Virus record (IMG/VR): IMGVR_UViG_2930438282_000003
Span: 32,001-96,000 of that record
Direction: 5' to 3' (one strand)
Length of the DNA stretch: 64,000 bases
Source of the DNA: a virus
Lineage: Duplodnaviria > Caudoviricetes
Below the pieces are notes generated by a model. The model worked only from the letters and a program-made list of their open reading frames with translations. It made no database searches and had not been told where the DNA came from. Every line of letters begins with the position of its first letter. Position 1 is the first letter of the stretch. Below, piece by piece: positions 20,688 through 57,430 of the stretch. The position numbers and the translations under genes are program-made.

Positions 20688-20756
20688 TAAGATCCTCGCT
20701 AGACGACTGCTGGTTATGGGCCGGGTCTTCCAGATCGATCGCTGGAGAACCTGCCC
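20688..20756 (+). promoter_or_regulatory. Conserved leader copy 1 (before major capsid gene)
   Basis: TAAGAT 20688; CTGCTGGTTATGGGCCGGG 20707-20725; GGGCCGGGTCTTCCAG pairs imperfectly with CTGGAGAACCTGCCC, hiding the GGAG RBS. Confidence 0.85.
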
Positions 20757-22412
20757 ATGGACGACTTCCAGATTCCCGAGGACATCCGCGCTCTCGACGA
20801 CGCCCAACTCGCTGAGGCGCTCGCCGGCGCCACCCAGGCCTTCCAGGCCCTGTCGTCCCAGACCCGCATCGACGACTCGACGATGGGGCAGCTGCGTGCC
20901 CTGTCGACGTGCGTTCAGGACATCCGGCAGGAGCAGTCCGACCGTATCTCCGCCGCCGAGGCCGCCGCCGACGAGATCGAGCAGCTCGCCGCGCAGGTCC
21001 GTGGAGACGACCCGGCTGCCCACGTCGAGGAGACCCCGGCCGAGCCGACCACCGCCGCAGCCGAACCCGCGGCCGAGCCCGGCCCGGCCGCTTCCGAGCC
21101 GGCCAACGAGCCGCAGGCCACCGCGACCGCCTCCCTTGCCCGCCCCTCCCTCGACCTGTCCCTGGTGAGGCGCCGTCAGACACGCGTCCTCCCGGAGCCG
21201 CCCGCCCCGGGCACCGTCATCACCGCCGCCGTCGACGTCCCCGGCTACACGCCAGGCGCCGAACTCGACTTCAACCAGGTCACCGCGGGCGTCATCTCCC
21301 GCGCGAACGCCCTGAAGACCGCCGGTGGTGGCCTTGGACAGGTCATCAGCTACCACCACCCGTACCCGGAGGAGCTGATCGTCACGGACTCCTCGTCGGC
21401 GCCCGAGGGCACCGAGGTGGCGCTCCGCGCGGCCGACCAGTCTCGCCTCCCCGAGAAGGACCTCGTGGCGTCCGGAGGCTGGTGCGCGCCGTCAGAGACC
21501 GTGTACGAGCTGACGTCGGTCGCCTGTCCCGACATGCTGTGGGACGCGCCGGAAATCCAGCTCGCCCGTGGCGGCCTGCGGTACTACAAGACGCCGTCGC
21601 TGGACGTCGCGGCGATGACGTTCGTGCACACCGAGGCCGACGACATCTCCGGTGCGACGAAGCCGTGCTTCAAGATCCCGTGCCCGGACCCGGTGGAGAT
21701 GCGCTGTGACGCGGTCGGTGTCTGCCTGGAGGCGGGCATCCTGACTCAGCGCCACTTCCCGGAGCTGGTCAACTGGTACCTGCGGAACGCGATGGTGGCG
21801 CACGAGATCCGCCTCCGCTCGGTCCTATTCTCGCAGGCCCTGGCCACCGCCACCCCCGTCACCCTCACGGAGACGTTCGGCGCGATCTCGGCGATCTTCG
21901 CGGCCGTCGCCCTACAGGCCGCCGACATGGTCGAGCGCCACTCGTTCTGTGACTCGATCTCCCTGGAGGTCGTGTTCCCGTGGTGGTCGCGGAACCTGTT
22001 CCTCGCCGACCTGGCGCGCCGTAACGGCGTCAGCATCGACGAGGTCACCACCGCCGACGTGCAGAGCGTATTCCGGCCGCTCGGGGTCCGCATCCAGTGG
22101 GCGCGGAACCTGATCGCCCCGAACGTCACCGGCGCGACGATGGGCCAGACCGCCCCGGCGACGGCCTGGCCTGCCGAGATCAAGTTCCTGATCTACCCGT
22201 CCGGCCAGCTGCAGATCGGCCGTGGCGAAGAGGTCAACCTCGGCGTCATCCACGACTCGACGAAGTTCTCCACCAATGACTACACCGCGCTGTTCTCGGA
22301 GGAGTGTGTCGGTCTCGTGGACCGCTCCGTCGACACCCGCGTCGTCACCGTTCCCGTCTGCCCGTCCGGTGAGACCGGCGCGCAGACCCTGATGGCCTGC
22401 CCCGCAGCCTGA
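20757..22412 (+). CDS. Major capsid (hexamer-type) protein with N-terminal scaffold-like region
   Basis: Acidic helical N-terminus, then LVASGGWCAPSETVYEL, a motif typical of cluster-B-like capsids; C-terminal DSTKFSTNDYTALFSEE. Confidence 0.85.
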   Translation: MDDFQIPEDIRALDDAQLAEALAGATQAFQALSSQTRIDDSTMGQLRALSTCVQDIRQEQSDRISAAEAAADEIEQLAAQVRGDDPAAHVEETPAEPTTAAAEPAAEPGPAASEPANEPQATATASLARPSLDLSLVRRRQTRVLPEPPAPGTVITAAVDVPGYTPGAELDFNQVTAGVISRANALKTAGGGLGQVISYHHPYPEELIVTDSSSAPEGTEVALRAADQSRLPEKDLVASGGWCAPSETVYELTSVACPDMLWDAPEIQLARGGLRYYKTPSLDVAAMTFVHTEADDISGATKPCFKIPCPDPVEMRCDAVGVCLEAGILTQRHFPELVNWYLRNAMVAHEIRLRSVLFSQALATATPVTLTETFGAISAIFAAVALQAADMVERHSFCDSISLEVVFPWWSRNLFLADLARRNGVSIDEVTTADVQSVFRPLGVRIQWARNLIAPNVTGATMGQTAPATAWPAEIKFLIYPSGQLQIGRGEEVNLGVIHDSTKFSTNDYTALFSEECVGLVDRSVDTRVVTVPVCPSGETGAQTLMACPAA

Positions 22413-22431
22413 CCCCTCGCCCGCCCCATCA

Positions 22432-22466
22432 CGTGCCGGGCCCGTTCCTGACGCGGGCCCGGCACG
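22432..22466 (+). terminator. 13-bp perfect hairpin after the capsid gene (attenuator or stabiliser)
   Basis: CGTGCCGGGCCCG-9 nt-CGGGCCCGGCACG. Confidence 0.75.
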
Positions 22467-22494
22467 CCCCGATTTGAAGAGACGGAGGCGCGCA

Positions 22495-23337
22495 ATGGCT
22501 GCCGGCCTGCGGAAGTACGTCGAGGCCATCCCCGGCAGGCCTCTGCCGCACGGGATCCTCCTCAACACCTGTACTGACGTCCGTGACGTCACCGACGAAC
22601 ACGAGCTGCTCGGCATCGAATGGCTCGGCTTGGGCTGCTGCCCGGTCAACGTGTGGCGCGACCCGTGCACCGACGAGTCCCTCGGGGGCGAATCGCCGGG
22701 CCAGCCGCCGCAGAAGGAGTTCTGCAGGCCGACCGCTGAGCACGCCGACCCGATCACGGTGTACGCGGGCGCCGAGTGCTCCACGATGGGCTGGACGTAC
22801 GCGGAGGCCCGCACCCACGCCGAGGCGTCGTTGGAGCTCGGCGAGCAGGAAGCCGTCGAGGCCGGGTTCTGGACGAACACGTTGGCCATGACCGCGCAGG
22901 ACCTCACCCCTGCGGCCGGGCCGGTGAACATCGCCCAGGGCGTGGCCGCGCTGGAGGGCTGCCTGGCCGAGCAGTACGGCGGCGTCGGCACACTCCACGT
23001 CCCGGCCGGCGCTGCCGCGGTGCTGGGCTGCTGCAACCTCGTCCACCGCGACGGGAACGGCTCGTTGAGCACGCTCGCGGGGAACTGCGCGGTGATCGGC
23101 GCCGGATACAGCGCCATGAACACCGGCCCCGGGAACATCCCGGCCGATCCGGGCACGGCGTGGCTGTACATCACCGGGCCGGTCGTCGTGCGGCGCGGTC
23201 CGACCGTGACGATCCCGGACCGGCCGGGAGCGTCGGTGAACATCCGCACGAACGACCTCAGGGTTCTGGTCGAGCGGTCGTACGTCGTGGCCACGACCTG
23301 TGTGGTCTGCGCGATCCAGGTGGTGACTTGTCCATGA
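22495..23337 (+). CDS. Second capsid protein (pentamer-type)
   Basis: ATG 22495 after GGAGG. PITVYAGAECS, GVAALEG..YGGVGTLH, WLYITGPV and VERSYVV; follows the hexamer gene as in cluster-B-like phages. Confidence 0.7.
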   Translation: MAAGLRKYVEAIPGRPLPHGILLNTCTDVRDVTDEHELLGIEWLGLGCCPVNVWRDPCTDESLGGESPGQPPQKEFCRPTAEHADPITVYAGAECSTMGWTYAEARTHAEASLELGEQEAVEAGFWTNTLAMTAQDLTPAAGPVNIAQGVAALEGCLAEQYGGVGTLHVPAGAAAVLGCCNLVHRDGNGSLSTLAGNCAVIGAGYSAMNTGPGNIPADPGTAWLYITGPVVVRRGPTVTIPDRPGASVNIRTNDLRVLVERSYVVATTCVVCAIQVVTCP

Positions 23338-23768: not shown

Positions 23769-23772
23769 CGCC

Positions 23773-26700
23773 GTGGCCGTTGAGCCCATTCCGTGCAAGG
23801 ACGGCGGAGGCGGCACGCCCGTCGACGTCACTACCTGCTGTTCTCCGTCGATCGCCTCAGCTCCCCTGTGCCGCGCGGATGGGACGGGCGTGCTCCTCGT
23901 CGTCCGCTCGGGCTGCGTCGAGTGCGGTCAGGCCGCCGAGGACCCGGCGGTCGTCGGCTGGATCGATCCGGCAAGCGGCGCGTTCACCGCAGGCCCGGCC
24001 CCCGCCGATGCCGGCCCGTGCGAGGCCGGATGCGTCGACACCGTCTGCCGCCAACTGTGCGACGACACCGATGGCGACGGCCAGGCCGACGCCACCTACT
24101 CGGAACTGTGGTGCATCCGCGCAGACGGCTCCGCCGAGCTGGTCCTCACCTACCAGGACGACCCGTCCACGCCGTACACGCCCACGGCGCCCGTCGCCTG
24201 CACCTACGGCTGCCCCGAGTCCGAGACGGTGACCCTGTGCGACGCAAACGGCCCGTTCCTGCGCCGGTACAGCTTCCTCAACGGGACCGCCACGTACGAG
24301 GACGTCGCCCTCGACGGACAGACCCCGCACGTCGTCACCGGCACCGTCGGCGTCTGTCCGGCCGCCCCCGAGTGTGAGGCGCAGACGACCCCCGCTGCGA
24401 CGCTCGGCCTGTGCCTCGCCGACGGCACACCCATCGCCGTGGTGGTCACCCGCGACTGCGACGGCGCCACGACCCAGGACGGATGGCTCAACCTCACCAC
24501 CGGCGCCTACTCGGCCGGGGAACCACCGGCCGGAACGATGGCGTGCGGCAATCCGCGCAGCATCAGCACCACGGGCACCTTCTGCGACATCGACCCCAGC
24601 GGCGGGGTCCTCGGCCTGGTGCTGATCGAGTACACCTACGGCGCGGACGGCGCGGTCGCCGCGGTGCGCCTGGTCGACGCGACCACCGGCCAGACGTACA
24701 CCCCGCAAGGCGAAGTGACGACGTGTCCGGCCGACGTCGAGCAACCCGAACGGGACCTCGTCCAGCTCTGCGACACCGCCGCCGACGGCACCGTGACCGC
24801 GTTCGTGCGGGACTACGCCCGCGACGAGAACGGCGCCATCACCGGCCACACGGACTACTTGCTGGACGGCACCGCCTACACGCCGACCGGCTCTGTCGGC
24901 ATCTGCCAGTCGGAGACGTGCGGGGCGTGCGAAACGCTGCTCCTGTGCGACGTCGACGCCGCGTCCCCGTCCACCCTCGCCGGTACGGCCGCGTCCGGGA
25001 CACTGGCCAACGGTGTCACCTGGACGTCCACGGGCCCTTCGGCCTTCCCGCCGGGCACGCAGGGCGACGGCGCCGCCTGGTGGGGCCCGGCCCTCTTCCC
25101 CAACCCGAACGTCCCCCTGACAACGTTCACGTTCGACCAGCCCGTCACGGCCGAGTTCAGCGTCGTGATGGTCTATTCGACCGGCACCGGAGCCGGGGAG
25201 AACACCGTTCAGCTGCCGGCCGGGGCCGTCCCGCTCAGCCTGCCGCCCGGCTACACCTACAACCGGGCCACCGGCATCCTGCGCGCGGACGCCACCCTCA
25301 CCGGCTGCACCACCCTCAACACCCCCACCCGCGCGGCCAGCGCACGTTTCCGCGTCACGGGAGTGTCCTCCTTCGCGCTCAAGTACCTGGGCACAAGGAC
25401 CCTCCTCGTCGACTGCCGGCGGTTCGGCAACTGGGTGTTCGGCGCCGTGGACGTCTCCATCGGCGGGCAGTTCCTGCGCACGGTGTGCCGGGACTGCACC
25501 GGGGCCGTCACCTCGACCACGGACACGCTCCTCGACGCGGCAACGCCGTATGCGCCGGTTGGCACGGTCGGACAGTGCCAGCCGGCACAGGCGTCCGGGG
25601 ACACAGAGGTTGTCCAGCTGTGCGACCTCCAGTACAGCCCGGCCCCGCCGATCCCCACCCCGTCGTCCTCGTTCACGCTCACCGGCTCGGTGCAGCTGCT
25701 CGGCGCGGCGCTGGTCTTCTCCGGCGGGAACCAGGCGGTAACTGGCGTCGCCACCAGGAGCGTCAGCGGCCTGGCGCCGACCGCCAGCTACGACCTGCTC
25801 TTCGACGCCGGGTGGAACGGGGTCGGCGCACCACCCGGAGCCGTGGATGCTATCTACCGCGTGGAGGTCCTGGACGGCACGACCGTCCTGGCCACCCGGG
25901 ACCGTAACCTCACCAACGGCAGCACCTCGGCCGGCCACGAGGGCATGGCCGCCCAGGACCCGCTGTCGTTCGTCGCGCCAGCATCGGGCACGGTCACCGT
26001 GCGGTTCACGGACCTCACCACCGGCGGCGGCATCAACCGCGACCTGTACATCAACACGCACACGGTTCAGACGTCCACACTGCAGCTCACCGCCGTGCCG
26101 TTCCTGCGTCTCCTCACCTTCCCGGCCGATGGCGGCGCCCCTACTGTCACGGACACCGGCCTCGACGGGACCACGCCGTACACCCCGGCCGGGACGGTCG
26201 GCGTGTGCCCGTCACCGGCAGAGGAGTCGCAGGAGCCCGTTCCGTGCCGGGACACCTCCAGCACCCTCCTGCGCGACACCGCCACAACCGACCTGATCAC
26301 CGTCTTCGACCCGGCGAACCGAGCGAGTTCGGATGGGTGGGAGGTCGTCTCGTTTACCGGCGCCAACCCGGGCAGTGGACCGCAGGCGGCAATGCCGTAC
26401 CCGGCCCCGTATGGCACCCCGTTCGGGTATCCGGCGCTCGGCGCCCGCGCCGACCAGTCCGCGGGCACAGGCAGCGGCGGGCCTTGGAGCACCTACGACG
26501 CTGCCCCCGTGCGGTGGGTTCTCCGGAAGACGTTCAACGCCCCGGAGGACGGCGTCGCAGTCGCCCAGAGCGTGGGCTTCCGCGGCGACGGTGGCGCCCG
26601 CGTCCGGATCAACGGCATCGACGCCGGCATGTACGGGCAGTGGAACCAGCCCGCCACCAGTGGTACCGCGCAGATCCCCGTGACGGCAGGACCGAACACG

Positions 26701-29403
26701 GTTGAGATCGAGGTCCGTGACGTCGGCGGGATCAACAACGTCGTAGGCCGCCTCGACATCCTGCTCCCGCACACCACCCAGTTCATGCGCCGGCAGACCG
26801 TGGACTGCGACACCGGCGACGTCATCGCCACGCACGACAGCACCCTCGACGGGCAGCCGTACACGGTCACGGGTGACGTCGGGCAGTGCGAGCCTGTCGC
26901 CGAGTGCTGCGAGCAGCCACCGCCGGAGGCCCGCGTCGATGTCGAGACCGGTCTCCTGTGCCTGGTCGACGACGCCAGCGGTGACGTCCTCGGCCGCGTC
27001 CTGGCCGAGCGGGTCTATGACGACCAGGCAGGCGACCGCATCGAGCAACGGCTTGTCGACCCGGTCACTGGCGATCCGGTCACCGTCCCGGCCGGGGCGA
27101 GCCTCACCGTGTGTCCGGCACCAGAGCACGAGCCGTGTGGGGACACCGAACTCGCCGAGCTGTGCGACCTGACCTACGACCCGCAGGCCCCGATTCCTAC
27201 CCCAGCGGGCGACTTCACCCTGACCGGGAACGTGGTCGCCGCCAATGACGGCACAACCCTGTGGTTCGCGCAGGCCAACCAGGAGGCCAACGGTGTAGCT
27301 GAGCTGACCGTCAGCGGGCTGCTCCCCACCGTCCTATACGAGTTCCGGTTCGCGTCCGCGTGGATCGGTGCAGGAGCGCCCACCCCGGCCACCAACAACG
27401 CCATCTACCTGCTGGAGATCCTCGACGGCACGACGGTGCTCGCCACGAGGACCCGGAACACGTCCAACGGGTCGAGCGTGTTCCCGGGCGGGGTGCTGTC
27501 CGAGGACCTGCCGCCGCTGGCGTTCATCGCCCCTGCCACTGGCGCGGTCACGATCCGGTTCACCGACCAGACGACCGGCGGGCCGATCAACGACCGTGAC
27601 CTGTTCCTGATGCCGTTTGAGGTGCGCACGGCGGTGCTGACCCTCAACAGCACACCGTTCCTGCGGCGCTTCACCTTCGACTGCAACGGCGGCCTCACCT
27701 CGACCCAGGACCTCGCATTGGACGGCACCACGCCGTACGAGGTGCAGGGCGAGGCAGGCACTTGCGCAGGAGACGGCAGCAGCGGCGTGGCTGCGCCCGG
27801 CCCGGACACGGAGGTCGTGCAGCTCTGCGACGTCGCCACGGACGGCACGAGCACCCCGTTCCTTCGGGCCCTCACGTGGCAGCCAGGCGCAGACACCCCG
27901 ACCGTCGCAGACACCGCACTCGACGGCGTCACGGCCTACACGCCGGCCGGGACGGTCGGCCTGTGCCAGGGCGCAGCAGCGGCCGAGGGCCGGGACGTCG
28001 AGATCACGCCCATGTGCGTGATCGACGACAACAGCGGCGGCGTGATCCAACGGATCCTTGCCGAGGTCACCTACGACACCGCCACCGGCGCCCGACTCGG
28101 CGTCAACTACGTGGACCCCACCACCTGGGGGCCGGTCGCGTTGCCCGGCGGCACGCACCTGGACCTGTGCCCCTCGGAGCAGCCGACGCCGGAGCCGTGC
28201 CGCAACTCCAGCACGCTCCTGCTGTGCGACCTGCCCACCGACGGCACCCCAACGGCGACCGTCACGGACACCAGCCCCACGCCCTACTACCCGTACGCCA
28301 CCGGCTCCCCGGTGGCTGGCGCCCAGGCGCTGTGGGACGGCGGCACGCTGGACCTGCCGCCCGGCACCGGTCCGCAGCCGGGCACCACCGGCAGTGTCAA
28401 CAGCCTGGCCGCCACCATCGCGGCGCCGCGCCCGGCCTGTGACACCGGCATCGCCCACGTCACCGTCTCGCTCACGGTGCAGCAGACCGGCCCGGACGAC
28501 GGGTGCGGCCCCACCGGCCATCTGCGCCTGTTCAACGGCACCACACAGGCGGCGCTGACCGTGCTGCCGGCCAACACCCCGAACGGGTACTTCGGCACCC
28601 TCACGGTGGAGGCGGACATCCCGGCCGCCGACCTGGCCGCCGGGAACGTCGCCGTGGCGCTCGCCCTGGATGCCTACGACGACAGCCCGGCATCGTGCAC
28701 GCCGAGCCCCCGTCACACCGGCTGGCAGCTCTCCGCGTTCACCATCACCGCGGCGTACGACCAGGCTGGATGCGCGGCCCAGGTCCTCGCGAACGTGGTC
28801 ACGGACTGCGAGAGCAGACAGGTCGAGTCGGTCACGTACACGACGCTGGACGGGGCGCCCTACACGCCGACCGGCGAGATCGGCCAGTGCCAGAGCGCAG
28901 GCGGCGGCTCATGCTGCCCCGAACAAACCTGCCCGGCACAGAACATCATCGAGACGTGCAGGTGCGACGACACCGACGGCGACGGCATTCCCGACACCGG
29001 GTATGTGGAGCTGCTCGCCGTCGACTGTCAGGGCACGCTCACAAGCCTCGGCACCTACACCGACGGGCTCACCCACCCGTATACGCCCGTCTCGCCAGTC
29101 GCCTGCGATACCGGGGACGAGGGCGCCGACCCGGCCACCGGAGCTCAGGCCCACCGCCTCGAGCTCGCCGCCGGCCAGTCCTGGGACCTGTCCACCTACG
29201 TCCTCGTCCAGTCGGTCACCGCCGTCGCCCACGGAGGCGCGGGAACGGTGTCCACAGCCGACGGACAAAGCACCCTGCACACCAGCGAGGCGGCCACCTG
29301 GAGCCTGGCCCGCGATGTCGACGCCGCCGTGACCGGGCCACTCATCATCACCGCTGACACCGGCACAGTCACGATCACTTGGACCCAAGGAGTCACGCTG
29401 TAA
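23773..29403 (+). CDS. 1876-aa Cys-rich modular repeat protein (putative capsid fibre or decoration)
   Basis: Recurrent LCD...PFLR...LDGxTPYxPxGTVGxC modules, several carrying inserted beta-rich domains; no signal peptide. Confidence 0.8.
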   Translation: MAVEPIPCKDGGGGTPVDVTTCCSPSIASAPLCRADGTGVLLVVRSGCVECGQAAEDPAVVGWIDPASGAFTAGPAPADAGPCEAGCVDTVCRQLCDDTDGDGQADATYSELWCIRADGSAELVLTYQDDPSTPYTPTAPVACTYGCPESETVTLCDANGPFLRRYSFLNGTATYEDVALDGQTPHVVTGTVGVCPAAPECEAQTTPAATLGLCLADGTPIAVVVTRDCDGATTQDGWLNLTTGAYSAGEPPAGTMACGNPRSISTTGTFCDIDPSGGVLGLVLIEYTYGADGAVAAVRLVDATTGQTYTPQGEVTTCPADVEQPERDLVQLCDTAADGTVTAFVRDYARDENGAITGHTDYLLDGTAYTPTGSVGICQSETCGACETLLLCDVDAASPSTLAGTAASGTLANGVTWTSTGPSAFPPGTQGDGAAWWGPALFPNPNVPLTTFTFDQPVTAEFSVVMVYSTGTGAGENTVQLPAGAVPLSLPPGYTYNRATGILRADATLTGCTTLNTPTRAASARFRVTGVSSFALKYLGTRTLLVDCRRFGNWVFGAVDVSIGGQFLRTVCRDCTGAVTSTTDTLLDAATPYAPVGTVGQCQPAQASGDTEVVQLCDLQYSPAPPIPTPSSSFTLTGSVQLLGAALVFSGGNQAVTGVATRSVSGLAPTASYDLLFDAGWNGVGAPPGAVDAIYRVEVLDGTTVLATRDRNLTNGSTSAGHEGMAAQDPLSFVAPASGTVTVRFTDLTTGGGINRDLYINTHTVQTSTLQLTAVPFLRLLTFPADGGAPTVTDTGLDGTTPYTPAGTVGVCPSPAEESQEPVPCRDTSSTLLRDTATTDLITVFDPANRASSDGWEVVSFTGANPGSGPQAAMPYPAPYGTPFGYPALGARADQSAGTGSGGPWSTYDAAPVRWVLRKTFNAPEDGVAVAQSVGFRGDGGARVRINGIDAGMYGQWNQPATSGTAQIPVTAGPNTVEIEVRDVGGINNVVGRLDILLPHTTQFMRRQTVDCDTGDVIATHDSTLDGQPYTVTGDVGQCEPVAECCEQPPPEARVDVETGLLCLVDDASGDVLGRVLAERVYDDQAGDRIEQRLVDPVTGDPVTVPAGASLTVCPAPEHEPCGDTELAELCDLTYDPQAPIPTPAGDFTLTGNVVAANDGTTLWFAQANQEANGVAELTVSGLLPTVLYEFRFASAWIGAGAPTPATNNAIYLLEILDGTTVLATRTRNTSNGSSVFPGGVLSEDLPPLAFIAPATGAVTIRFTDQTTGGPINDRDLFLMPFEVRTAVLTLNSTPFLRRFTFDCNGGLTSTQDLALDGTTPYEVQGEAGTCAGDGSSGVAAPGPDTEVVQLCDVATDGTSTPFLRALTWQPGADTPTVADTALDGVTAYTPAGTVGLCQGAAAAEGRDVEITPMCVIDDNSGGVIQRILAEVTYDTATGARLGVNYVDPTTWGPVALPGGTHLDLCPSEQPTPEPCRNSSTLLLCDLPTDGTPTATVTDTSPTPYYPYATGSPVAGAQALWDGGTLDLPPGTGPQPGTTGSVNSLAATIAAPRPACDTGIAHVTVSLTVQQTGPDDGCGPTGHLRLFNGTTQAALTVLPANTPNGYFGTLTVEADIPAADLAAGNVAVALALDAYDDSPASCTPSPRHTGWQLSAFTITAAYDQAGCAAQVLANVVTDCESRQVESVTYTTLDGAPYTPTGEIGQCQSAGGGSCCPEQTCPAQNIIETCRCDDTDGDGIPDTGYVELLAVDCQGTLTSLGTYTDGLTHPYTPVSPVACDTGDEGADPATGAQAHRLELAAGQSWDLSTYVLVQSVTAVAHGGAGTVSTADGQSTLHTSEAATWSLARDVDAAVTGPLIITADTGTVTITWTQGVTL

Positions 29404-32189
29404 TGTCCGGTTGCTGCGGGCAGGGGCCCGTCATCGTTTCCGGGGCTGCCGCCACGCCCCGACTGGATGCAGAGGGCACGCTCCTCTGCGATGTGTTGTC
29501 AGACGGCACGGTGGCCGGGGTCGCGCTGGTTGAGGCCCTGTACGACACGGGGAGCGGCGAGCGTGTCGGCACGCGCACCGTGGATCCGGTCACCGGGGCC
29601 GCGTACACGGCCACGGGCACGTTGCAGCCCTGCTCGACGTCTTCGGACTGCGAGTCCCCGACCACCCCGCTTACCTCGGTCGGGCTGTGCCTGGCCGACG
29701 GCACCCCGATCGCCGTCACGGTCATCCGGGACTGCAGCGGTGCGGTGACGTCCGAGGGCTGGATCAACCTCAGCACCGGGGCATGGTCGACCGGTGCCCC
29801 GCCGGCCGGCACCGTGGGTGCCTGCCAGCCGACGCCCCAGCCGGACCGGGAAGTCGTCTGCTACCGCTCGCCAACGGCGTTCGGCGCGTGCACCAACGTG
29901 CAGATCACCGACCTGCCGCAGCCAAAGTTCGCATCCGCGTCCGTCGTCGCGAACCCGCAGAACTGGCCGGTCAATCAGGCCAACCTCGCCAGCACAATCA
30001 ACGGCAACGTGTCCGGGGCTGGCGGCCCGAACGCGCCCGAGGGGGTGATCAACTGCGACGCTTTCCAAGGGGACACGGGTGTCGTCATTGACTACCTGCT
30101 CGCGGCGCCTCGGGACAACGTCACGGCCGTCCGGTTGTGGAACTGCTTCGGCAGCGTCGTCACCGACAACGACGGCATCGGGTCTGCCACCGTCACCCTG
30201 TACGACGAGGCCGGTGCGGTCCTGTTCACGGGCCCCCTGGTTGCATGCCAGTACGTCACCAGCAGTGCGTACGCCACACCATGCGTCACCCCGGTCGGGA
30301 ACCTCGACGGTGTGGCACGTATGCGGCTGGAGAACCTGGCGAAGTTCCCGCCGTCCGTGGGGACGGTGGCGCCCGATGTCGGCTGGCGTGAGATCGACCT
30401 GTTCTCCACCTACGAGGCGACCCTGACCGTGGACTGCGGCGGCGCCCCAGTGTCCGCACTCGTCGAGGGCAAACAGCCCGGCCTCACGTACGCCGACGGC
30501 AAGCTGACCCAGGTCAACGGGCCGCACACGCTGACGTTCACGGTGCCGGGCGGCGGCACTGGCCGGATCATCACCGACAACCCAGCGGCTTTCTCCGCGC
30601 TCGACTTCGCGGACGGGTCGGTCATCACCGTGACCGGGGACGGCGCGGTCGACTTCGCCACCGAGATCGTCTCGGGCGCGGCGACGAAAAGCGGTTACGT
30701 CACGTGGGACCCGGTTAACGGCGAACCCACAGTGCGTGACGCGAACAGCGGTGAGACCATCGCGGATGCCGAGGTCGTGCCATGCGCATCGACCTGCTGC
30801 ACCGGCAGCAGCCCGGACGGGGTCACACAGCCAGAGCAGGACGTGATCCAGCTCTGCGACACCGCCACAGACGGCACCGTGACCTCCTTCGTACGGGACT
30901 ACGCCCGTGACGAGTCCGGGGCCATCGTCGGTCACAGTGACTACGACCTGGACGGCACGGCCTACACCCCAGCCGGAACCGTCGGCATCTGCGGCGGGGA
31001 CTGCTGCGAGCCCGTCCAAGTCTGCGTCCAGGCCACCGCCACGGAGACGATCGAGTTCATCTCCAACGAGGCGCAGGTCGATGACGACAGCATCGACACG
31101 GTATGGACGTGGACCAACGACGGCGACGCCAGCGGTCCTGCCGCGGCGGCGACCTGGTACCAGATGTACCGGGCCCGCTACGGGTTCAACCCGGCCGCCT
31201 GGTCGGTGGTCGACTCCGCGCCGACCCGTAAGGCCGGCTGGATCTCCCCCCATCCCAACGGCGCCACGACCAGCACCGGAGCACCTGGCGAGGGCCCCAC
31301 GCTGAGCGGCACGCCCGCCAACCCGATGCGCTGGTGGGCGAAGGCGGCGTTCAGCCTGCCCGCCGCGGCAGACCCGGACTCGATCCGCGTACAGATCACC
31401 GTCCTCAACGCCGACCAGATCGCCTCCAGGTTCCGGCTCAACAGCGGCGCGTGGACGGCCCTCCCGGGCTCGGCCACCTACAACGGCACCCCGTACACGT
31501 TCGGTCCGGGCATCGTCGCCGGGGCACAACCGGGAACCAACACCCTGATCTTCGAGGTGCTGGAGACCGTCGACGACAACCCGGGCAACGGTGCCGGGGT
31601 GATGGCGCACTTCATCGTCACTTACGACGTGCCCGGCCTCGGGCAGCGGTCATGGACCCGGATGATGTGCTGTGACGGGTCGATCTACTACATCGACGAG
31701 TTCGGGGAGCGGCGGGACGAACTACCGCTGTCGTCGGCGGTCGTGCCCTGCGGCAGCGCTGCGGAGCCGTTGACGCTGTGCGACGACAATGGCGCCTTCC
31801 TGCGCCACGTGTCCTACGTCGGGGACCAGGTCCTCACCATGGACACCGACCTGAACGGGTCGGCGTACGAGGCGACAGGCCGTGTCGGCAACTGTGCGAC
31901 GGACGGCAGTAGCGCTCGCGGGCCCGTCGACACCGGCATCCGCTCCGTCACCGGCACGACAGTCGAGGACCTCACCGCGGAGTTCCCGGACTTGCAGAGC
32001 GTCAGCCTGGCTGTCCTCGCAGACACGGTCGACGTGACCATGAGTGACGGGACGAGCGTGCCGATCCCGGCCGGTGTCACGCTCACCTGGTCCGTCTCGA
32101 AGGACACCGACAGCGCACTCGCCGCGGCCTCCTTCGCCGGGGCCGACTCCTCCGCCTCCTACCTCCTGAACTGGACGTACCTGTCATGA
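29403..32189 (+). CDS. Cys-rich modular repeat protein, paralog of the preceding gene
   Basis: TAATG overlap, starts MSGCCGQG. Shares the blocks GLCLADGTPIAV..RDC and QLCDTAxDGTVTxFVRDYARDE with 23773..29403. Confidence 0.8.
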   Translation: MSGCCGQGPVIVSGAAATPRLDAEGTLLCDVLSDGTVAGVALVEALYDTGSGERVGTRTVDPVTGAAYTATGTLQPCSTSSDCESPTTPLTSVGLCLADGTPIAVTVIRDCSGAVTSEGWINLSTGAWSTGAPPAGTVGACQPTPQPDREVVCYRSPTAFGACTNVQITDLPQPKFASASVVANPQNWPVNQANLASTINGNVSGAGGPNAPEGVINCDAFQGDTGVVIDYLLAAPRDNVTAVRLWNCFGSVVTDNDGIGSATVTLYDEAGAVLFTGPLVACQYVTSSAYATPCVTPVGNLDGVARMRLENLAKFPPSVGTVAPDVGWREIDLFSTYEATLTVDCGGAPVSALVEGKQPGLTYADGKLTQVNGPHTLTFTVPGGGTGRIITDNPAAFSALDFADGSVITVTGDGAVDFATEIVSGAATKSGYVTWDPVNGEPTVRDANSGETIADAEVVPCASTCCTGSSPDGVTQPEQDVIQLCDTATDGTVTSFVRDYARDESGAIVGHSDYDLDGTAYTPAGTVGICGGDCCEPVQVCVQATATETIEFISNEAQVDDDSIDTVWTWTNDGDASGPAAAATWYQMYRARYGFNPAAWSVVDSAPTRKAGWISPHPNGATTSTGAPGEGPTLSGTPANPMRWWAKAAFSLPAAADPDSIRVQITVLNADQIASRFRLNSGAWTALPGSATYNGTPYTFGPGIVAGAQPGTNTLIFEVLETVDDNPGNGAGVMAHFIVTYDVPGLGQRSWTRMMCCDGSIYYIDEFGERRDELPLSSAVVPCGSAAEPLTLCDDNGAFLRHVSYVGDQVLTMDTDLNGSAYEATGRVGNCATDGSSARGPVDTGIRSVTGTTVEDLTAEFPDLQSVSLAVLADTVDVTMSDGTSVPIPAGVTLTWSVSKDTDSALAAASFAGADSSASYLLNWTYLS

Positions 32190-33719: not shown

Positions 33720-33768
33720 GCCGCTGGTTATGGGCCGGGCGACCCCCTTCACCACAAGGAGCCTGCTC
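33720..33768 (+). promoter_or_regulatory. Conserved leader copy 2
   Basis: GCCGCTGGTTATGGGCCGGGC 33720-33740; CCTT/AAGG and GGGC/GCTC pairing covers the AAGGAG RBS; only a weak -10 (AAGACT 33707). Confidence 0.85.
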
Positions 33769-38342: not shown

Positions 38343-38615
38343 AGGGGTTCTCCCGCAGGGTCGGCCCGGACAGTGGGGCGCCGGGCGGCTGACGGCATGA
38401 CACCACTACCCCGGTCTATGCGAGTAGACCCGGCGGGTGAATAACAGGCGACCTGCGCAATCCTTACCCCTGCCTGACCAAGGCTTTCCGAAGTGCCCTG
38501 TTTCGCCGACGAGTTGTGCAGCATTTCAACGGCCGAGAATGAATGCGGCCCTGGTTGCGACGGTCGGCGGCGAACCGTTGCATCTGAGCTCGACAAACTT
38601 CCCCAGATGCGACAC

Positions 38616-38718
38616 TAGAATCCGTACTAGGTAAGCCGCTGGTTCTGGGCCGGGCTCCCCACCACGTTTCACGCTGCTGGTTGTGGGCCGAGGCGACACC
38701 TTGGTGTTGGAGGGCCCC
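38616..38718 (+). promoter_or_regulatory. Conserved leader, tandem copies 3 and 4 (before major tail gene)
   Basis: TAGAAT 38616; GCCGCTGGTTCTGGGCCGGGC 38635-38655; GCTGCTGGTTGTGGGCCGAGG from 38673; hairpin GGGCC..CGACACC/GGTGTTG..GGCCC encloses the GGAGG RBS. Confidence 0.88.
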
Positions 38719-41676: not shown

Positions 41677-41773
41677 GTCGACTCCTACTCAGTCGGCGTG
41701 ACCCCCGGGCTGGCGCCCATCGCCGCCTGGGGGTCGGTGCGTTACACCCCAAATCGTACGGAAGGGGTGTGAC

Positions 41774-42355: not shown

Positions 42356-42729
42356 GCGTCGACGTGCGGATCGAGCAAGGCCGGCTGTCACGGTTCCTGC
42401 GACTGCGCGGCGGCATCGTGGAACGCCGGCTCGCCACGCGTACGGCCCGGGTCGCCGACTATGCCCGAGCCGAAGCCCCCGGGCACATGGGCGAGTACGT
42501 CGACTGGCACATCACCGAAGGTGCCCGCGGCCTGGAGGGTGTCATCACCTGCGATCACCCTGCGGTCCGATTCGTCATCGAGGGCACCCGCCCCCACATC
42601 ATCCGTCCCCGAAGTGCCAAGGCCCTGCGTTTCGAGGTCGACGGCCAGGTGGTGTATTCGGCGCTCGTCCGGCACCCAGGGACGAGGGCGAATAATTTCC
42701 TGGCGAGGGCACTCCGCCTTGGGCGTTGA
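42352..42729 (+). CDS. Neck/tail completion protein (HK97 gp10-like)
   Basis: GTGA overlap; GTRPHIIRPRSAKALRF...VRHPGTRANNFLARAL. Confidence 0.7.
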   Translation: MSVDVRIEQGRLSRFLRLRGGIVERRLATRTARVADYARAEAPGHMGEYVDWHITEGARGLEGVITCDHPAVRFVIEGTRPHIIRPRSAKALRFEVDGQVVYSALVRHPGTRANNFLARALRLGR

Positions 42730-43480
42730 GATCTCTATACGCGGCCATCACAAACTCCGCACGGGCCGCCGTGAGGGACGTGCTCACTTGCGTCATGTTA
42801 ATCGGTTGAATCGTCATGGCCACGATTGAGCCGATGTAATCGGCATCCAGCCCAGAGACTAGCGACAGTGCCTGCTGCGCATCACGCTTGGCTTCTTCCA
42901 CTTCGGGGGGCAGTTCGGACCCCTGGTCAAACTGACCACGGGCAACCACCCGAAGACGGTTGATGGAGACACGGACGTGTGTGACGAGCGAGTGCTCCGC
43001 CTCGCTTGCCCATCGATCAAAGATGCTATGCGCGCGTTGATATTCTGACCACTTAACCTTGTCTGTGGCGTACTGCACTACTGCCGATAGCAAATCGACA
43101 GCAGGGCCATACAGGTCGGCCGATTCGAGGCGCACGACCCAGCACGCAATCTCTGCCCGTAAGAGCGTTTCTTTTAGCGTCGACTCGGCCTCCCGAATGG
43201 TTTCATCTGCCGTGGACGATTCCTCTGTCGGCAGAGTGAGCCGTTCTATGTTCGACGTGACAACCAAGTACTCCACGTACGCGTCCCGCCGAACAGTGCG
43301 ACGCCATTGATCAAGGTTGGCAGCTGCCGTTGCCTCCGCAGCGTCGACGGCCGCCCGATACGTCGACTCCGCTGTACGTATCCCCGCCTTCATCTGCCAA
43401 CGACCGACGACCATCGCTGCCGGTATGCCGAATAACGTGACCGCCGCTGCCGATACCGCTCCGATGCCCGCTAGATCCAC
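42599..43480 (-). CDS. Cargo membrane-anchored hypothetical protein
   Basis: Likely start GTG 43480 (MDLAGIGAVSAAAVTLFG...QWRRTVRRDAYVEYL); lower GC; its 3' end overlaps the neck gene. Confidence 0.6.
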   Translation of the reverse strand: MDLAGIGAVSAAAVTLFGIPAAMVVGRWQMKAGIRTAESTYRAAVDAAEATAAANLDQWRRTVRRDAYVEYLVVTSNIERLTLPTEESSTADETIREAESTLKETLLRAEIACWVVRLESADLYGPAVDLLSAVVQYATDKVKWSEYQRAHSIFDRWASEAEHSLVTHVRVSINRLRVVARGQFDQGSELPPEVEEAKRDAQQALSLVSGLDADYIGSIVAMTIQPINMTQVSTSLTAARAEFVMAAYRDLNAQGGVPSPGNYSPSSLGAGRAPNTPPGRRPRNAGPWHFGDG

Positions 43481-43551: not shown

Positions 43552-43615
43552 TACTCTTGCTCGGCACGCCGCTGGTTTTGGGCCGGGCGTTCGCGCGGGA
43601 GACAAGGGCACGCCC
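43552..43615 (+). promoter_or_regulatory. Conserved leader copy 5 (before tail chaperone)
   Basis: TACTCT 43552; GCCGCTGGTTTTGGGCCGGGC 43568-43588; GGGCGT/ACGCCC stem closes directly before the GTG. Confidence 0.85.
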
Positions 43616-44391: not shown

Positions 44392-44452
44392 TAGTCTGAG
44401 ATCGCCGCTGGTTCTGGGCCGGGCATCATCACGACCTTCGTGAGGGTGCCCG
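44392..44452 (+). promoter_or_regulatory. Conserved leader copy 6 (before tape measure)
   Basis: TAGTCT 44392; GCCGCTGGTTCTGGGCCGGGC 44404-44424; hairpin GGGCAT..TCACGA/TCGTGA..GTGCCC covers the GAGG RBS. Confidence 0.88.
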
Positions 44453-52341: not shown

Positions 52342-52401
52342 TAACCTGGTTGTGCTGCTGGTTCTGGGCCGGGCTGCCACCCACTTCGGGGAGGTCCCGT
52401 C
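52342..52401 (+). promoter_or_regulatory. Conserved leader copy 7 (before minor tail gene)
   Basis: TAACCT 52342, whose TA is the IS630 target; GCTGCTGGTTCTGGGCCGGGC 52354-52374; CGGG..CCC/GGG..CCCG stem over GGAGG. Confidence 0.85.
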
Positions 52402-53887: not shown

Positions 53888-53895
53888 CGCCCAGC

Positions 53896-53961
53896 TACCC
53901 TGCTTGGCGTCGCCGCTGGTTGTGGGCCGGGCCGCAGTCTCCTCGAAGGAGCGGCCCCGCC
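53896..53961 (+). promoter_or_regulatory. Conserved leader copy 8
   Basis: TACCCT 53896; GCCGCTGGTTGTGGGCCGGGC 53912-53932; GGGCCG..CTCCT-cga-AGGAG-CGGCCC fully pairs the AGGAG RBS. Confidence 0.9.
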
Positions 53962-55155: not shown

Positions 55156-55187
55156 TCTCGTAACACCCTCCTATAGCGTTAACGGTC

Positions 55188-57184
55188 ATGCATCGAACAT
55201 TCCGTCACTTTGCTGTCGTCATAGCAGTTTTGCTGGCATCCGTACTACCGAGCGTCTCTGCCTCCGCTCACACCTCCGCTCCCGCCGACCCACAGGCCGA
55301 TGCAGCAGCCGTCCAGACCCTGGACTGGCTCGCCCACCTGCCCGGTCGGGCGGGCAACCGAGTGGTGTCCGGCGCCTTCGGCGGCCACAGCGGGCTGACC
55401 TTCTCACTCACCCAGACCGAAGCGCTCAGGAACCAGACCGGTCAGTACCCCGGGCTGCTCGCCTGCGACTACGGCGTCAACGCCGCCACCATCGACCACT
55501 CCTGCAACGCCACCCTCAAGCAGTGGTGGGCCGACGGCGGCCTGGTCTCCGTCAGCGCCCATGTCCCCAACCCGGTCAAGCCCGGCTGGGATGGCTTCTG
55601 GACGCGGCTGGAGACCTTCGATCAGCTGACCGACCCCTCCACCGCCACCGGGGCGGCCTGGCGCGCGACTCTGGACCAGATCGCGGACGGGCTCGAGGAC
55701 CTGAACGCCGCAGGCGTACCGGTACTGTTCCGGCCGCTGCACGAGATGAACGCGCAGGGGTCCAAGACCTTCTGGTGGAGTTCCCAGAGCCGGTCGGCTT
55801 ACAAGGCCGTGTGGCGTGACATGTTTCAGTACCTGACTGAGAACAGAGGCCTGCACAACCTGTTGTGGGTCTACTCACCGGGGTGCTGGTCCGGCGACCG
55901 GGCGGGGTACTACCCCGGCGACGCATACACCGATATCGTCGGCCTCGACTGCTACATCGGCAATCCCGCCGCCGCCCAGGGGTACGCCGAGCTCACCGCG
56001 CTGGACAAGCCCTTTGCCTTCTCGGAGATCGGTCCGCCGATCCCGTCCGGCAGCAGCGTCCCGGCGACCGGAAGTTTCGACTACGCTCAGTGGCCCGAGG
56101 CCATCCGCGCCCAGTTCCCGGCCACCACGTACTTCCTGACTTGGAGCAGCTCCTTCAGTCCCGTCAACCAGCTGGGCGGGACGAGCTGATTAACGACCCC
56201 TGGACCGTCAACCGGGGCGAGATCAACCTCAGCGCACGCACCGAGGCCGCCGGACCCGCTCGCCCACCGGCCCCCGTCGAGGAACTGTACGGCTTCGAGG
56301 ACGGCACCAGTGACTGGAACGGCTACCTTACGCTCCACGGCCCCTGGTCAGTGACCGAGTGGGCCTCGCAGGGCACCTACTCCCTCAAGGCCGACATCGA
56401 CCTCGCCTCCCCCGAGAGCTACCTCAACTGGACCGGCACCACGGACCTGAGCAGCTACGGCACCCTCACCGCGGCAGTGCGCACCGCTCCCTGGGGGAAC
56501 CATGCTGCCGGCACCCACGCCAAGCTTTACCTGCGTACTGGATCGGCCGGGACCTGGTACGACAGCGGAGAGACGGTCATCGATACGAACGGGGCGATGC
56601 TCACTATCGACCTGTCCAAGGTCAGGGACCTCAACGACGTCCGTGAGATCGGCGTCCGGATCACCCCCGCCACCGGTGCGTCCGGCCAGTCGGCCGTCTA
56701 CGTGGACGACGTGTCGGCAACCCGGCCGCCGACCACTTTTGCCGACTTCGAGGACGGCGCGGACAGCTGGATCGGCTACCGGACAAAGGCCGGTCCTTGG
56801 TCGGTAACCGAATGGGCCGCCATGGGCACCCACTCCTTCAAGGCCGATGTCGATCTCACGGCGGGCAGCAGCATTCTCTACCGGTACTTCTCCACGCCAG
56901 TCGACTGGAGCGGCCGGACCACCTTCGCCGCCGTAGCCCGCACCGCTCCCTGGGGCAATCACGCCGACGGCACCCGGGCCAAGCTGTATGTCAGGTCCGG
57001 CCCCGACTGCACCTGGCACGACGGCGGAACCCATCCCGTGGACTCCGCAGGAACCGCGCTCTCTTACAACCTGACCGGCGTCGCCGGCCTCAACCACGTC
57101 TGCGAGGCCGGGGTCCAGTTTATCTACGCCTCCGGGGCCTCGGGCGGCTCCGCGGTGTACGTGGACCACGCGACGTTGCGCTGA
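55188..57184 (+). pseudogene. Secreted GH26 beta-mannanase with two CBM-like repeats, frameshifted near 56183
   Basis: LFRPLHEMN, YYPGDAYTDIVGLDCY and FSEIGP. The ORF stops at 56189 but ELINDPWTVNRGEI continues in another frame, followed by two FEDG..W..GPWSVTEWA..G.(Y/H)S.KAD repeats. Confidence 0.8.
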
Positions 57185-57207
57185 GCCCTGCCCAACTGCG
57201 TGCAGCA

Positions 57208-57239
57208 GCCGCCCGCACCGCGTCGCGGGTGCGGGCGGC
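57208..57239 (+). terminator. 12-bp hairpin terminator
   Basis: GCCGCCCGCACC-8 nt-GGTGCGGGCGGC. Confidence 0.7.
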
Positions 57240-57358
57240 CGCCGATAAGGCCAGAGCGGTTGGTTCAACGCGAATCGAGCGCGCAGTTGTGCCGGACCCC
57301 GGCGAGTTCGACGCTTCCAGCATGATCAACCCCCGAAGGACTTCGAGCGCCGACCACT

Positions 57359-57430
57359 TAGACTCAATGGTGCGCCGCTGGTTGTGGGCCGGGCCAAGAC
57401 AAATCCCCGAGGACGGTGGGCACCTTGGCC
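57359..57430 (+). promoter_or_regulatory. Conserved leader copy 9
   Basis: TAGACT 57359; GCCGCTGGTTGTGGGCCGGGC 57374-57394; GGCCAAG (57392) pairs with CTTGGCC (57424), which contains the likely TTG start. Confidence 0.88.

Follow-up and report, generated by a model that had tools for sequence, protein, structure and literature searches.

The recurrence of one short sequence ahead of the virion genes of a provirus raises the question as to whether it acts as DNA or as RNA, and at which step of late-gene expression. To our knowledge, the way in which late genes are switched on in actinobacteriophages is largely unexplained. Repeated motifs in front of start codons have been noted in these phages before, and that work describes their roles as unclear (PMC7302621). 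In the 64-kb window (the whole stretch of DNA that was analysed), GCTGGTTNTGGGCCG has nine exact copies, all on the + strand and all between ORFs, and 100 dinucleotide shuffles gave none, which bears out the nine-copy claim of an earlier, sequence-only reading of this DNA. Allowing two mismatches adds a single match, on the minus strand at 14724 within the portal gene, where 1.15 are expected. Over the whole record there are ten forward copies, the tenth preceding an endolysin gene in the same 110-kb provirus, and no reverse copy, so that the antisense copy for which that reading had suggested a search is absent from the record. The conserved unit spans 21 nt (GCYGCTGGTTNTGGGCCGRGC) and is named HP1 here; each window copy lies 40–48 nt upstream of a start codon (Table 1). 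The tail assembly chaperone gene behind one copy was identified by homology to Streptomyces phage TurkishDelight, and two further copies precede genes whose products are a 962-aa protein without a known family and a protein of 281 aa that is Cys-rich at its N-terminus. The portal, MuF/protease and terminase genes are without the element. The confinement of the motif to late virion genes, also claimed earlier, holds as well, in that a repeated, oriented, intergenic element stands ahead of them.

Table 1. Positions in the window of HP1 copies, -10-type boxes and associated elements.
Feature	Position	Strand	Context
GCTGGTTNTGGGCCG cores	20709, 33723, 38638, 38676, 43571, 44407, 52357, 53915, 57377	+	exact match
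-10-type box TAAGAT	20688..20693	+	12 nt ahead of HP1 copy 1; family-wide enrichment
HP1 copy 1	20706..20726	+	precedes major head gene (phrog_777), start 20757
HP1 copy 2, without own -10 box	33720..33740	+	precedes gene for 962-aa protein, Cys-rich N-terminus, start 33769
-10-type box TAGAAT	38616..38621	+	ahead of tandem HP1 pair
HP1 copy 3, first member of tandem pair	38635..38655	+	precedes major tail gene (phrog_792)
HP1 copy 4, second member of tandem pair	38673..38693	+	major tail gene start 38719
-10-type box TACTCT	43552..43557	+	
HP1 copy 5	43568..43588	+	precedes tail assembly chaperone gene, start 43616
-10-type box TAGTCT	44392..44397	+	
HP1 copy 6	44404..44424	+	precedes tape measure gene, start 44453
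-10-type box TAACCT	52342..52347	+	
HP1 copy 7	52354..52374	+	precedes minor tail gene (phrog_837), start 52402
-10-type box TACCCT	53896..53901	+	
HP1 copy 8	53912..53932	+	precedes fibre-like gene (phrog_863), start 53962
Local CTCCT/AGGAG hairpin over Shine-Dalgarno site	~53939-53951	+	3' of HP1 copy 8
-10-type box TAGACT	57359..57364	+	
HP1 copy 9	57374..57394	+	precedes gene for Cys-rich-N-terminus protein, start GTG 57416 or, more likely, TTG 57425

The element extends well beyond this provirus. TurkishDelight carries nine exact copies at matching genes, including a tandem pair ahead of its major tail gene (18517/18556), and 204 distinct HP1 copies were collected from related proviruses. 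With up to three mismatches allowed, 224 matches have the same strand as the exact copies, the opposite strand giving 0. At least 165 of 185 genes behind HP1 belong to the head, major tail, chaperone, tape measure, minor tail or fibre groups and a few encode lysins; every one of the ten copies of the record and the nine of TurkishDelight is followed by a virion or lysis gene. Of nine exact copies in a 7.3-Mb host genome, eight fall within one 25-kb prophage and one is a stray match on the opposite strand at another chromosomal site; one-mismatch matches are at control level. The best explanation is that the element belongs to a leader cassette carried by the late (virion and lysis) transcripts in one family of temperate Streptomyces siphoviruses.

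HP1 folds as GCY-G-C-U-GGU [UNUGG] GCC-G-RGC, with pairs at -3:17, -2:16, -1:15, 1:14, 3:13, 4:12 and 5:11 and with G0 and U2 bulged, and the same fold was predicted independently by RNAalifold on 16 major-tail leaders. Four pairs covary: -3:17 (GC 182, AU 11, GU 4, UA 3), -2:16 (CG 193, UA 5, UG 3), -1:15 (CG 155, UG 37, UA 9) and 1:14 (n=254; CG 249, GC 2, UA 1, AU 1, unpaired 1). Two such changes can be seen in the window, where copy 1 (ACT...GGT) has a compensatory A-U closing pair instead of G-C and copy 4 (GCT...GAG) has U-A at -1:15. Pair counting (150/208 copies) gave 26 cells changed on both sides vs. 4.2 +/- 1.7 after shuffling, and none of 500 shuffles reached 26. There are 44 G-U wobble cells on the sense strand and two of the mirror A-C type; covariation that tolerates G-U on the sense strand only indicates an RNA hairpin and not a duplex-DNA site, and the covariation at the four pairs supports the earlier claim that the motif acts as folded RNA. 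Seventeen HP1 bases are invariant, loop and bulges among them. Pairs 3:13 and 4:12 never vary and therefore carry no information, the three TA examples at -3:17 seem to be chance matches within genes, and, since copies preceding the same gene are related by descent, the number of independent compensatory events is small. The self-fold put forward in the sequence-only reading (CUGGUU/GGCCGG) is indeed the RNAfold minimum free energy fold, but its base differs from the register supported by covariation. HP1 has an energy of -5.1 kcal/mol; in the naked full leader, where the energy model disfavours it, the outer helix has a probability of 0.01, and the median penalty for imposing HP1 is 10.3 kcal/mol, with only 8 of 185 leaders coming within 2 kcal/mol. 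In its broad form, the claim that HP1 is a cis element of late mRNAs acting at the level of RNA is likely to be correct.

On its 5' side, a TANNNT hexamer starting at -24 to -12 accompanies 166 of 204 copies, compared with 1–12 in control windows of equal size, leaving a gap of 6–14 nt between box and HP1. An unbiased pattern count ranks TA...T first (169/197 vs. a background of 9.5), and there is no conserved -35 box across HP1 copies. The box reported 6–13 nt upstream at seven of eight window loci was recovered, the exception being the locus at 33723. In tandem pairs the box is found only before the first copy, and the copy at 38676, a second tandem member, lacks one; among copies of the whole family, second tandem copies and tape-measure copies behind a stem-loop are without a box. 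In PMC4895711, 80.4% of the 3,570 transcription start sites mapped in Streptomyces have TANNNT as their -10 motif. Taking a host-type (HrdB-like) promoter to have a TANNNT -10 hexamer 6–8 nt before the transcription start, the hexamer is suitably placed for a candidate promoter of this type in the same 166 copies. A phage-sigma-dependent late promoter was rejected, as a Sigma70_r2 search found no phage sigma factor in the provirus or TurkishDelight while detecting matches in 10 of 14 control genomes. Since HP1 lies just 3' of a -10-type box it should be located at or near the mRNA 5' end and, judging from the box, transcription would begin at HP1 or immediately upstream of it; as a promoter box is lacking from some copies, a 5'-terminal position is not obligatory. 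On the 3' side, a Shine-Dalgarno site and start codon follow at +36 to +63 (mode +45/46) in 185 of 197 copies, the start codon lying about 27 nt past the end of HP1 with the Shine-Dalgarno site in between.

The start region is more paired in these leaders (0.72) than in shuffled ones (0.60) or in 267 motif-less genes (0.58). The Shine-Dalgarno site pairs with the spacer (0.61 vs. 0.32 shuffled) and much less with the motif (0.16, below the 0.27 of the shuffles); in a purely local fold 126 of 185 leaders (68% vs. 56% shuffled) have at least three of its four nt paired, a modest excess. When HP1 is forced in silico, 1.62 of the 3 start-codon nt are unpaired compared with 0.95, and a two-state model in which a forced HP1 would open the start codon at a cost of ~10 kcal/mol is plausible. 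The proposed cassette would consist of a host-type -10 box (TANNCT) without a -35 box, the HP1 hairpin, a short C-rich spacer pairing with the Shine-Dalgarno site, and the start codon. HP1, with its unvarying bulges and loop, would serve as the docking site for a conserved partner; once folded, its G-rich 3' half would be kept off the C-rich leader, the start region would then be open and translation on, and in the absence of the partner the leader would close. Late-gene expression is probably set by HP1 via a putative partner. That this happens by a translational switch, with HP1 binding a conserved partner and controlling translation, is a more tentative proposal, to which we give slightly less than an even chance.

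As for the partner, the two complete phages (the provirus and TurkishDelight) have no regulator in common, be it a repressor, an activator or a sigma factor, which makes the most likely partner either a protein of the host or one from the shared virion module. No N-like gene was identified in these phages, and a search for a Com-type zinc ribbon (PF10122) had no match in either, which is uninformative given that the control also gave 0/14 genomes. A somewhat doubtful extension is that HP1 belongs to a new class of phage RNA signal that works without a phage regulator, binding a conserved host machine or, as feedback on assembly, a virion-module protein; RNA polymerase, the ribosome or an RNase, bound directly, are possible host candidates. 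If so, one 21-nt hairpin would set the output of about ten separately promoted late genes, and a default-closed leader, if true, would bar the lysogen from making virion proteins off host-type promoters.

The sequence-only reading had proposed a different switch, in which GGGCCGGGC at the 3' end of the motif is always the 5' arm of a gene-specific hairpin burying the ribosome-binding site and start, the self-fold competes with that hairpin, and one trans factor (a protein or small RNA), taken here as phage-encoded, flips all leaders together. Minimum free energy folds of six of eight window leaders do pair part of the motif with the start-codon region, and across 185 leaders the 3' half of the motif pairs downstream at 0.66 (>0.5 in 84% of them), but composition-matched shuffles reach 0.62. 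Pairing between start region and motif (0.38) exceeds the 0.27 seen when the motif is joined to leaders of motif-less genes (p=3e-6) and does not differ significantly from the 0.36 of shuffles; pre-start GCCC (30% vs. 11%) and GCCCGG (8% vs. 0%) are enriched. As shuffled leaders pair equally well, no sequence-specific long-range helix is demonstrated, and the claim that GGGCCGGGC always opens such a hairpin fails. Both hairpins given as examples exist, CTCCT/AGGAG at 53939 and GGCCAAG/CTTGGCC at 57392, but only the second uses the 3' end of the motif, the first being local and wholly downstream of it. The preference of the Shine-Dalgarno site for the spacer also counts against this model, as do the variable loop base N7, which does not follow the start codon (p=0.37), the missing antisense copy and the lack of a common regulator gene. 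What survives is an oriented late-gene RNA element next to a -10 box; with its hairpin between GGGCCGGGC and the ribosome-binding site no better than shuffles, the original model as a whole is unlikely.

Other explanations place HP1 outside translation. It could act in cis, perhaps together with the next hairpin, on the RNA polymerase transcribing the long late region and render it resistant to termination, much as HK022 put RNA or a nut/boxB site would. The location of HP1 directly 3' of promoter boxes, the tolerance of tandem and transcript-internal copies, and a strong GC-rich hairpin before about one in seven cassettes (14% with z below -2 vs. 7% in coding controls) suit antitermination, and a sequence that is unvarying among phages without a common regulator fits direct contact with a conserved host machine. 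However, antitermination requires neither the fixed distance to the ribosome site nor the excess pairing of the start region, ten sites mostly with their own promoter make long-range read-through less needed, simple scans gave no more terminators than shuffles, and HP1 is far smaller than put RNA; we regard this explanation as improbable. The same low probability applies to a 5'-end stabiliser or processing mark, i.e. a terminal hairpin shielding late mRNAs from 5'-end-dependent RNases. Given the gap between box and HP1, transcripts would begin 0 to ~7 nt before the hairpin, a geometry known to protect mRNAs; such a function would need a stem, however, and not 17 invariant bases including loop and bulges, second tandem and promoter-less internal copies would not be 5'-terminal unless the transcript were processed, and the hairpin is weak. 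A duplex-DNA site, whether an operator or stoperator-like repressor site, an activator site or part of a special late promoter, would be in keeping with an oriented, asymmetric and strongly conserved sequence that adjoins a -10 box and is present in many copies per genome, in which it resembles Cluster A mycobacteriophage stoperators, also asymmetric and oriented. Compensation that keeps Watson-Crick or G-U pairs on the sense strand only is not expected of a duplex-binding protein, though, and the absence of a shared repressor, activator or sigma factor, the -10 box ahead of only the first tandem copy and the restriction to late genes make this explanation very improbable.

With more than 200 copies, a fold backed by covariation, a defined position and a cultured phage in TurkishDelight, HP1 makes late-gene control in Streptomyces phages directly accessible to experiment and is a clear-cut candidate for a new RNA family. 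Should the cassette work alone, it would combine promoter and leader in one compact part with which to tune expression in Streptomyces.

How does HP1 compare with known systems? Rfam 15 had no match in the whole window at gathering thresholds, in agreement with the earlier view that this is not a described family; with E up to 10, positions 38560-38780 gave only a meaningless 8.9-bit snoRNA match, and a literature search gave no described match to the motif. According to PMC7302621, SAS/ESAS and other repeated pre-start motifs occur in Cluster K mycobacteriophages and Microbacterium Clusters EF, EC and EG, are repeated, oriented and present about ten times per genome in short gaps before start codons, and have a role stated as unknown; the Cluster EC motif lies 22–30 bp before the start codon, the EG motif contains short inverted repeats, and SAS, 13 bp long, itself takes the place of the ribosome site a few bp upstream of the start codon and is complementary to the 3' end of 16S rRNA (PMC7302621). 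Measured against that description, HP1 shares the repeated, oriented, pre-start arrangement, with the EC and EG layouts being close, but is 21 nt long, folds into a hairpin that covaries, goes together with a -10 box and is limited to late genes, and it has no sequence similarity to SAS. Equating it with SAS was rejected by position, as HP1 ends ~27 nt before the start with a separate Shine-Dalgarno site between, and by 16S complementarity, as the best duplex with a host 16S rRNA, at -31.5 kcal/mol, compares with -29.7 +/- 2.1 kcal/mol for 300 shuffles, 20% of which match it. Cluster A stoperators are asymmetric, numerous, oriented with transcription and located in short intergenic gaps; they are duplex-DNA sites for the immunity repressor over both early and late arms. 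HP1 differs in its RNA covariation, late-gene restriction and identity in phages without a common repressor, and was rejected as a stoperator or repressor operator on the sense-strand, G-U-tolerant covariation, on the lack of a shared repressor between phages with identical motifs, and on the distribution of the ten record and nine TurkishDelight copies, all before virion or lysis genes. The nut/boxB sites of lambda and the put RNAs of HK022, conserved hairpins or hairpin pairs of small size just 3' of phage promoters, act on their own transcript in cis and make polymerase resistant to termination, put needing no phage protein. HP1 shares with them only the position after promoter boxes; phages with nut or put have two sites per genome that are not tied to ribosome sites, and sequences and sizes differ. 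In the Com/mom system of phage Mu, a regulator-bound small hairpin lies 5' of a structure that occludes the start, and binding opens the start site. HP1 has no sequence similarity to that element and precedes about ten late genes where Mu has one site and one gene, but is likewise a small hairpin just 5' of structure at the translation start.

The motif GCTGGTTNTGGGCCG, a short element ahead of late virion genes that is predicted to fold as a 21-nt RNA hairpin (HP1), occurs nine times in the window, always on the + strand, and not once in 100 shuffles. Allowing two mismatches adds a single match, on the minus strand inside the portal gene, which is the chance expectation. The whole record holds ten forward and no reverse copies, the tenth lying ahead of an Amidase_2 endolysin. 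All nine window copies are inter-ORF, with a start codon 40–48 nt downstream. The genes behind them encode the major head protein (phrog_777), a 962-aa protein of no known family, the major tail protein (phrog_792, with two tandem copies ahead), the tail assembly chaperone, the tape measure, a minor tail protein (phrog_837), a fibre-like protein (phrog_863) and a 281-aa protein with a Cys-rich N-terminus. The sequence-only reading of this DNA had described nine intergenic + strand copies ahead of structural genes, with a TANNNT box 6–13 nt upstream at seven of eight loci, and both descriptions are correct.

The motif is not confined to this provirus, a record of 110,357 bp in IMG/VR of which the window is bases 32001–96000. 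The nearest named relative of the provirus is TurkishDelight, a temperate Streptomyces phage of 93.6 kb; the tape measure and minor tail genes of the two are 72% identical in nucleotide sequence. TurkishDelight carries nine exact copies of CTGGTTNTGGGCC, all on the + strand, ahead of the genes for major capsid, major tail (tandem), chaperone, tape measure (tandem), minor tail, gp32 and tailspike; its 12 two-mismatch matches are at control level. Among 50,697 named phage records, the tandem leader is matched only by TurkishDelight (two records of this phage). Pattern scans found the motif in at least 115 stretches of viral contigs and at least 120 stretches of genomes. Among the matches listed, the multi-copy genomes are Streptomyces, Kitasatospora, Embleya and Nonomuraea, and the single matches in other phyla are, by our estimate, as many as chance would give for a 17-base word across so much DNA. 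In a complete Streptomyces genome of 7.3 Mb, eight exact copies lie in one 25-kb prophage and one elsewhere, with one-mismatch matches at the control level; in this genome, therefore, the host chromosome does not use the motif. A variant motif, GGTGGCGNTAGGCCCGGC, was set aside: it occurs in 10 stretches of viral contigs, but has leader context in only two, both already-known contigs, and the others look like chance.

Across 204 distinct copies the conserved block measures 21 nt, GCYGCTGGTTNTGGGCCGRGC, numbered here from −3 to +17, the G of GCTGG being 0. The search pattern dictates positions 0–16; conservation extends beyond it on both flanks, to −3 to −1 and +17. In 1.12 Mb of fetched DNA, 224 matches with at most three mismatches lie on the strand of the exact copies and none on the other. 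A TANNNT box starts at −24 to −12 in 166 of the 204 copies, compared with 1–12 in control windows of equal size, and is separated from the block by 6–14 nt. When gapped hexamers are counted without bias, TA...T comes first (169/197 vs a background of 9.5) and TA..CT second (150). No conserved −35 box lies upstream of the motif in the 204 copies. According to PMC4895711, 80.4% of 3,570 mapped transcription starts in Streptomyces coelicolor have TANNNT as their −10 motif. Neither the provirus nor TurkishDelight encodes a Sigma70_r2 domain. The 38 copies that have no box are second tandem members, copies preceded by a stem-loop or by a box farther away, or a few probable intragenic chance matches. 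At tape measure genes the copies are a variant whose G0 bulge has an additional base (CCGA/CCGT-CTGG); these are often in tandem and have a GC-rich stem-loop upstream instead of a −10 box.

On the other side of the block, 185 of 197 copies are followed by a Shine-Dalgarno site and an open start codon at +36 to +63 (mode +45/46). Grouped by N-terminal similarity, the 185 downstream genes comprise Cys-rich minor tail or fibre proteins (57), chaperone (24), major tail (20), tape measure (19), major head (19), gp32-like fibre (18), another tail protein (9) and small groups, lysins among them. The Cys-rich N-terminus that starts 57 of the 185 genes behind HP1 reads M-x-x-C-G-C-G or M-A-x-x-C-V-C and is a signature that this phage family's minor tail and fibre proteins have in common. 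Scans of 19001–59000 for terminators and promoter consensus sequences gave nothing above shuffles.

The variation among copies is that of a base-paired element. In the 204 copies the three outer pairs covary: −3:17 is GC 182, AU 11, GU 4, UA 3 and other 4; −2:16 is CG 193, UA 5, UG 3 and other 3; and −1:15 is CG 155, UG 37, UA 9 and other 3. A U stands opposite every A, in 9/9 cases at position 15 and 5/5 at position 16. Pairs were counted in 150 of the 208 available copies (nine from the window and 141 of the 199 distinct copies with at most three mismatches). Here, 26 cells are changed on both sides vs 4.2 ± 1.7 in shuffles, none of 500 shuffles reaching 26. The compensatory events behind these cells are few, since copies at the same gene have common ancestry. 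In the same set 97.6% of cells are paired, vs 22–62% with the partner column slid; the unpaired cells mostly belong to the variant with one extra base after G0, which is out of register in a gap-free alignment. Pairs 3:13 and 4:12 never vary. Pair 1:14 changes from C-G to G-C or U-A in a diverged block of distant major-tail relatives (57–60% protein identity), and a relaxed scan (n = 254) gives CG 249, GC 2, UA 1, AU 1 and unpaired 1. Without guidance, RNAalifold folds 16 major-tail leaders as (((.(.(((.....))))))).

Judged from these alignments, the HP1 pattern fits folding of a single-stranded sense strand. A site in duplex DNA does not fit two observations: G-U cells on the sense strand number 44 whereas A-C cells, which pairing on the other strand would require, number only 2, and a single genome holds both compensated and canonical copies (in the window, the first and fourth by position are compensated). 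Short identical sequences that aid module exchange, i.e. recombination joints, would leave the covariation unexplained, and the tests also went against a repressor operator or stoperator. In the sense-strand hairpin, loop and bulges are invariant with one exception, in which U6 and G9 become G6 and A9 together. This class has 12 copies vs 240 canonical ones, often with C5, no copy has one change alone, and it may reflect the exchange of one loop type for another. Constancy of unpaired bases speaks for recognition by a partner rather than a role in structure only. The loop base N7 shows no association with start codon type (p = 0.37) or a preceding CCC (p = 0.06).

How could such a hairpin act on the start codon? 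The sequence-only reading had the 3′ end of the motif start a hairpin that covers the ribosome site or start codon, and in the window leaders MFE folds often do pair the motif 3′ half with the pre-start region. Across 185 leaders, however, downstream pairing of the motif 3′ half is 0.66 vs 0.62 in shuffles of the same composition, and pairing between start region and motif is 0.38 vs 0.36 (not significant), reaching significance only against motif-less genes (0.38 vs 0.27, p = 3e-6). The capacity for motif–start pairing is therefore real but accounted for by C-richness, and a specific helix between motif and ribosome site is unsupported. The C-rich part is the spacer between HP1 and the start codon. 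In whole-leader folds, Shine-Dalgarno pairing with the spacer is 0.61 vs 0.32 for a shuffled spacer, and with the motif 0.16 vs 0.27 in shuffles; the start region is paired at 0.72, vs 0.60 in shuffles and 0.58 in 267 motif-less genes from the same loci. With the local fold only, the effect is modest, at least three of four Shine-Dalgarno bases being paired in 68% of leaders vs 56% of shuffles, with a dG of −6.1 vs −5.1 kcal/mol. Qualitatively, leaders of the major tail gene have, at corresponding positions, widely different stem sequences (CCUCC/GGAGG, CCAAC/GUUGG, CACACG/CGUGUG and CUCCAAA/UUUGGAG) and keep a stem abutting or overlapping the Shine-Dalgarno site. Covariation says that HP1 forms, whereas the energy model says that the naked leader prefers the closed state: HP1 alone is worth −5.1 kcal/mol, and forcing it in the full leader has a median cost of 10.3 kcal/mol and leaves 1.62 vs 0.95 of the three start codon bases unpaired. 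The simplest reconciliation would be that HP1 folds first during transcription, or that a partner holds it.

To look for such a partner, we compared the provirus with TurkishDelight. By local tblastn, both have a virion block that runs from portal to gp32 (portal, MuF/protease, major head, major tail, adaptor, chaperone, tape measure, minor tails and fibre-like protein), and outside it only three genes are common to them, encoding a DUF1360 protein, a membrane protein of the lysis cassette and an IS110 transposase. The two have identical motifs, but with all TurkishDelight ORFs of at least 45 aa as tblastn queries against the provirus, at E < 1e-6 and then E < 0.05, no common repressor, activator or sigma factor was found. 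PHROGs and Pfam assigned none of 20 small or unknown shared-block proteins to an RNA-binding or regulatory family, the whole record has no antisense motif copy, and complementarity of the motif to 16S rRNA is not above shuffles. The lack of a shared regulator and of an antisense copy, with chance-level 16S complementarity, argues that the partner is most likely a conserved host component or a virion-block protein. The mechanism proposed from sequence is supported in part: an RNA element, which would lie at the mRNA 5′ end, is supported and two-state behaviour is plausible, while neither the specific hairpin between motif and ribosome site nor a single phage factor is supported.

Further features of the two genomes are listed in the table. 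The IS110-family transposase, one of only three genes shared outside the virion block, is annotated as hypothetical in TurkishDelight. The DUF1360 gene and the first ~145 portal codons are present twice in the provirus record; the ~17 kb between them holds two giant ORFs absent from TurkishDelight. This arrangement resembles a head-module insertion accompanied by target duplication. Two further very large ORFs lacking a TurkishDelight counterpart have capsid-proximal genes on one side and the next HP1 copy on the other.

Locations of leader variants, Cys-rich genes and genome features (window coordinates unless marked)
Feature	Location	Strand	Remark
Extra-base tape-measure variant of HP1	loci L051, L057, L058, L076, L107, L121; TurkishDelight 22899-22955		
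G6/A9 loop class	loci L047, L077, L235, L239, L248, L257, L260-L262		
Genes with Cys-rich N-terminus	33769, 52402, 53962, 57416/57425		plus many related loci
IS110-family transposase, TurkishDelight	TurkishDelight 41558-42763	minus	DEDD_Tnp_IS110 + Transposase_20
IS110-family transposase, provirus	last ~360 bases of record		
DUF1360/portal segment	record 27039-27856		~4,100-5,000 bases before window start
DUF1360/portal segment	13092-15223		record 45092-47223
Giant ORF	1-3828	minus	1399 aa; between DUF1360/portal duplicates
Giant ORF	4136-11086	plus	2316 aa; between DUF1360/portal duplicates
Two very large ORFs	23773-32189		1876 aa, 936 aa

Rfam 15 has no match to the motif. Neither the motif nor TurkishDelight was found in the main texts of the literature searched, and a topic-level search of these returned no description of an HP1 leader element. 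Repeated pre-start motifs of unknown role occur in other actinobacteriophages: PMC7302621 describes SAS/ESAS in Clusters K and EF, a Cluster EC motif 22–30 bp before start codons and inverted motifs before starts in Cluster EG. As SAS is portrayed there, the HP1 element is unlike it in place, size, fold and 16S complementarity. HP1 is real and widespread, an RNA leader hairpin that the sources searched do not describe; it is coupled to a −10 box of host type and found ahead of late genes only. In layout it is most like a Com/mom-type activator site or a nut/put-type leader RNA.
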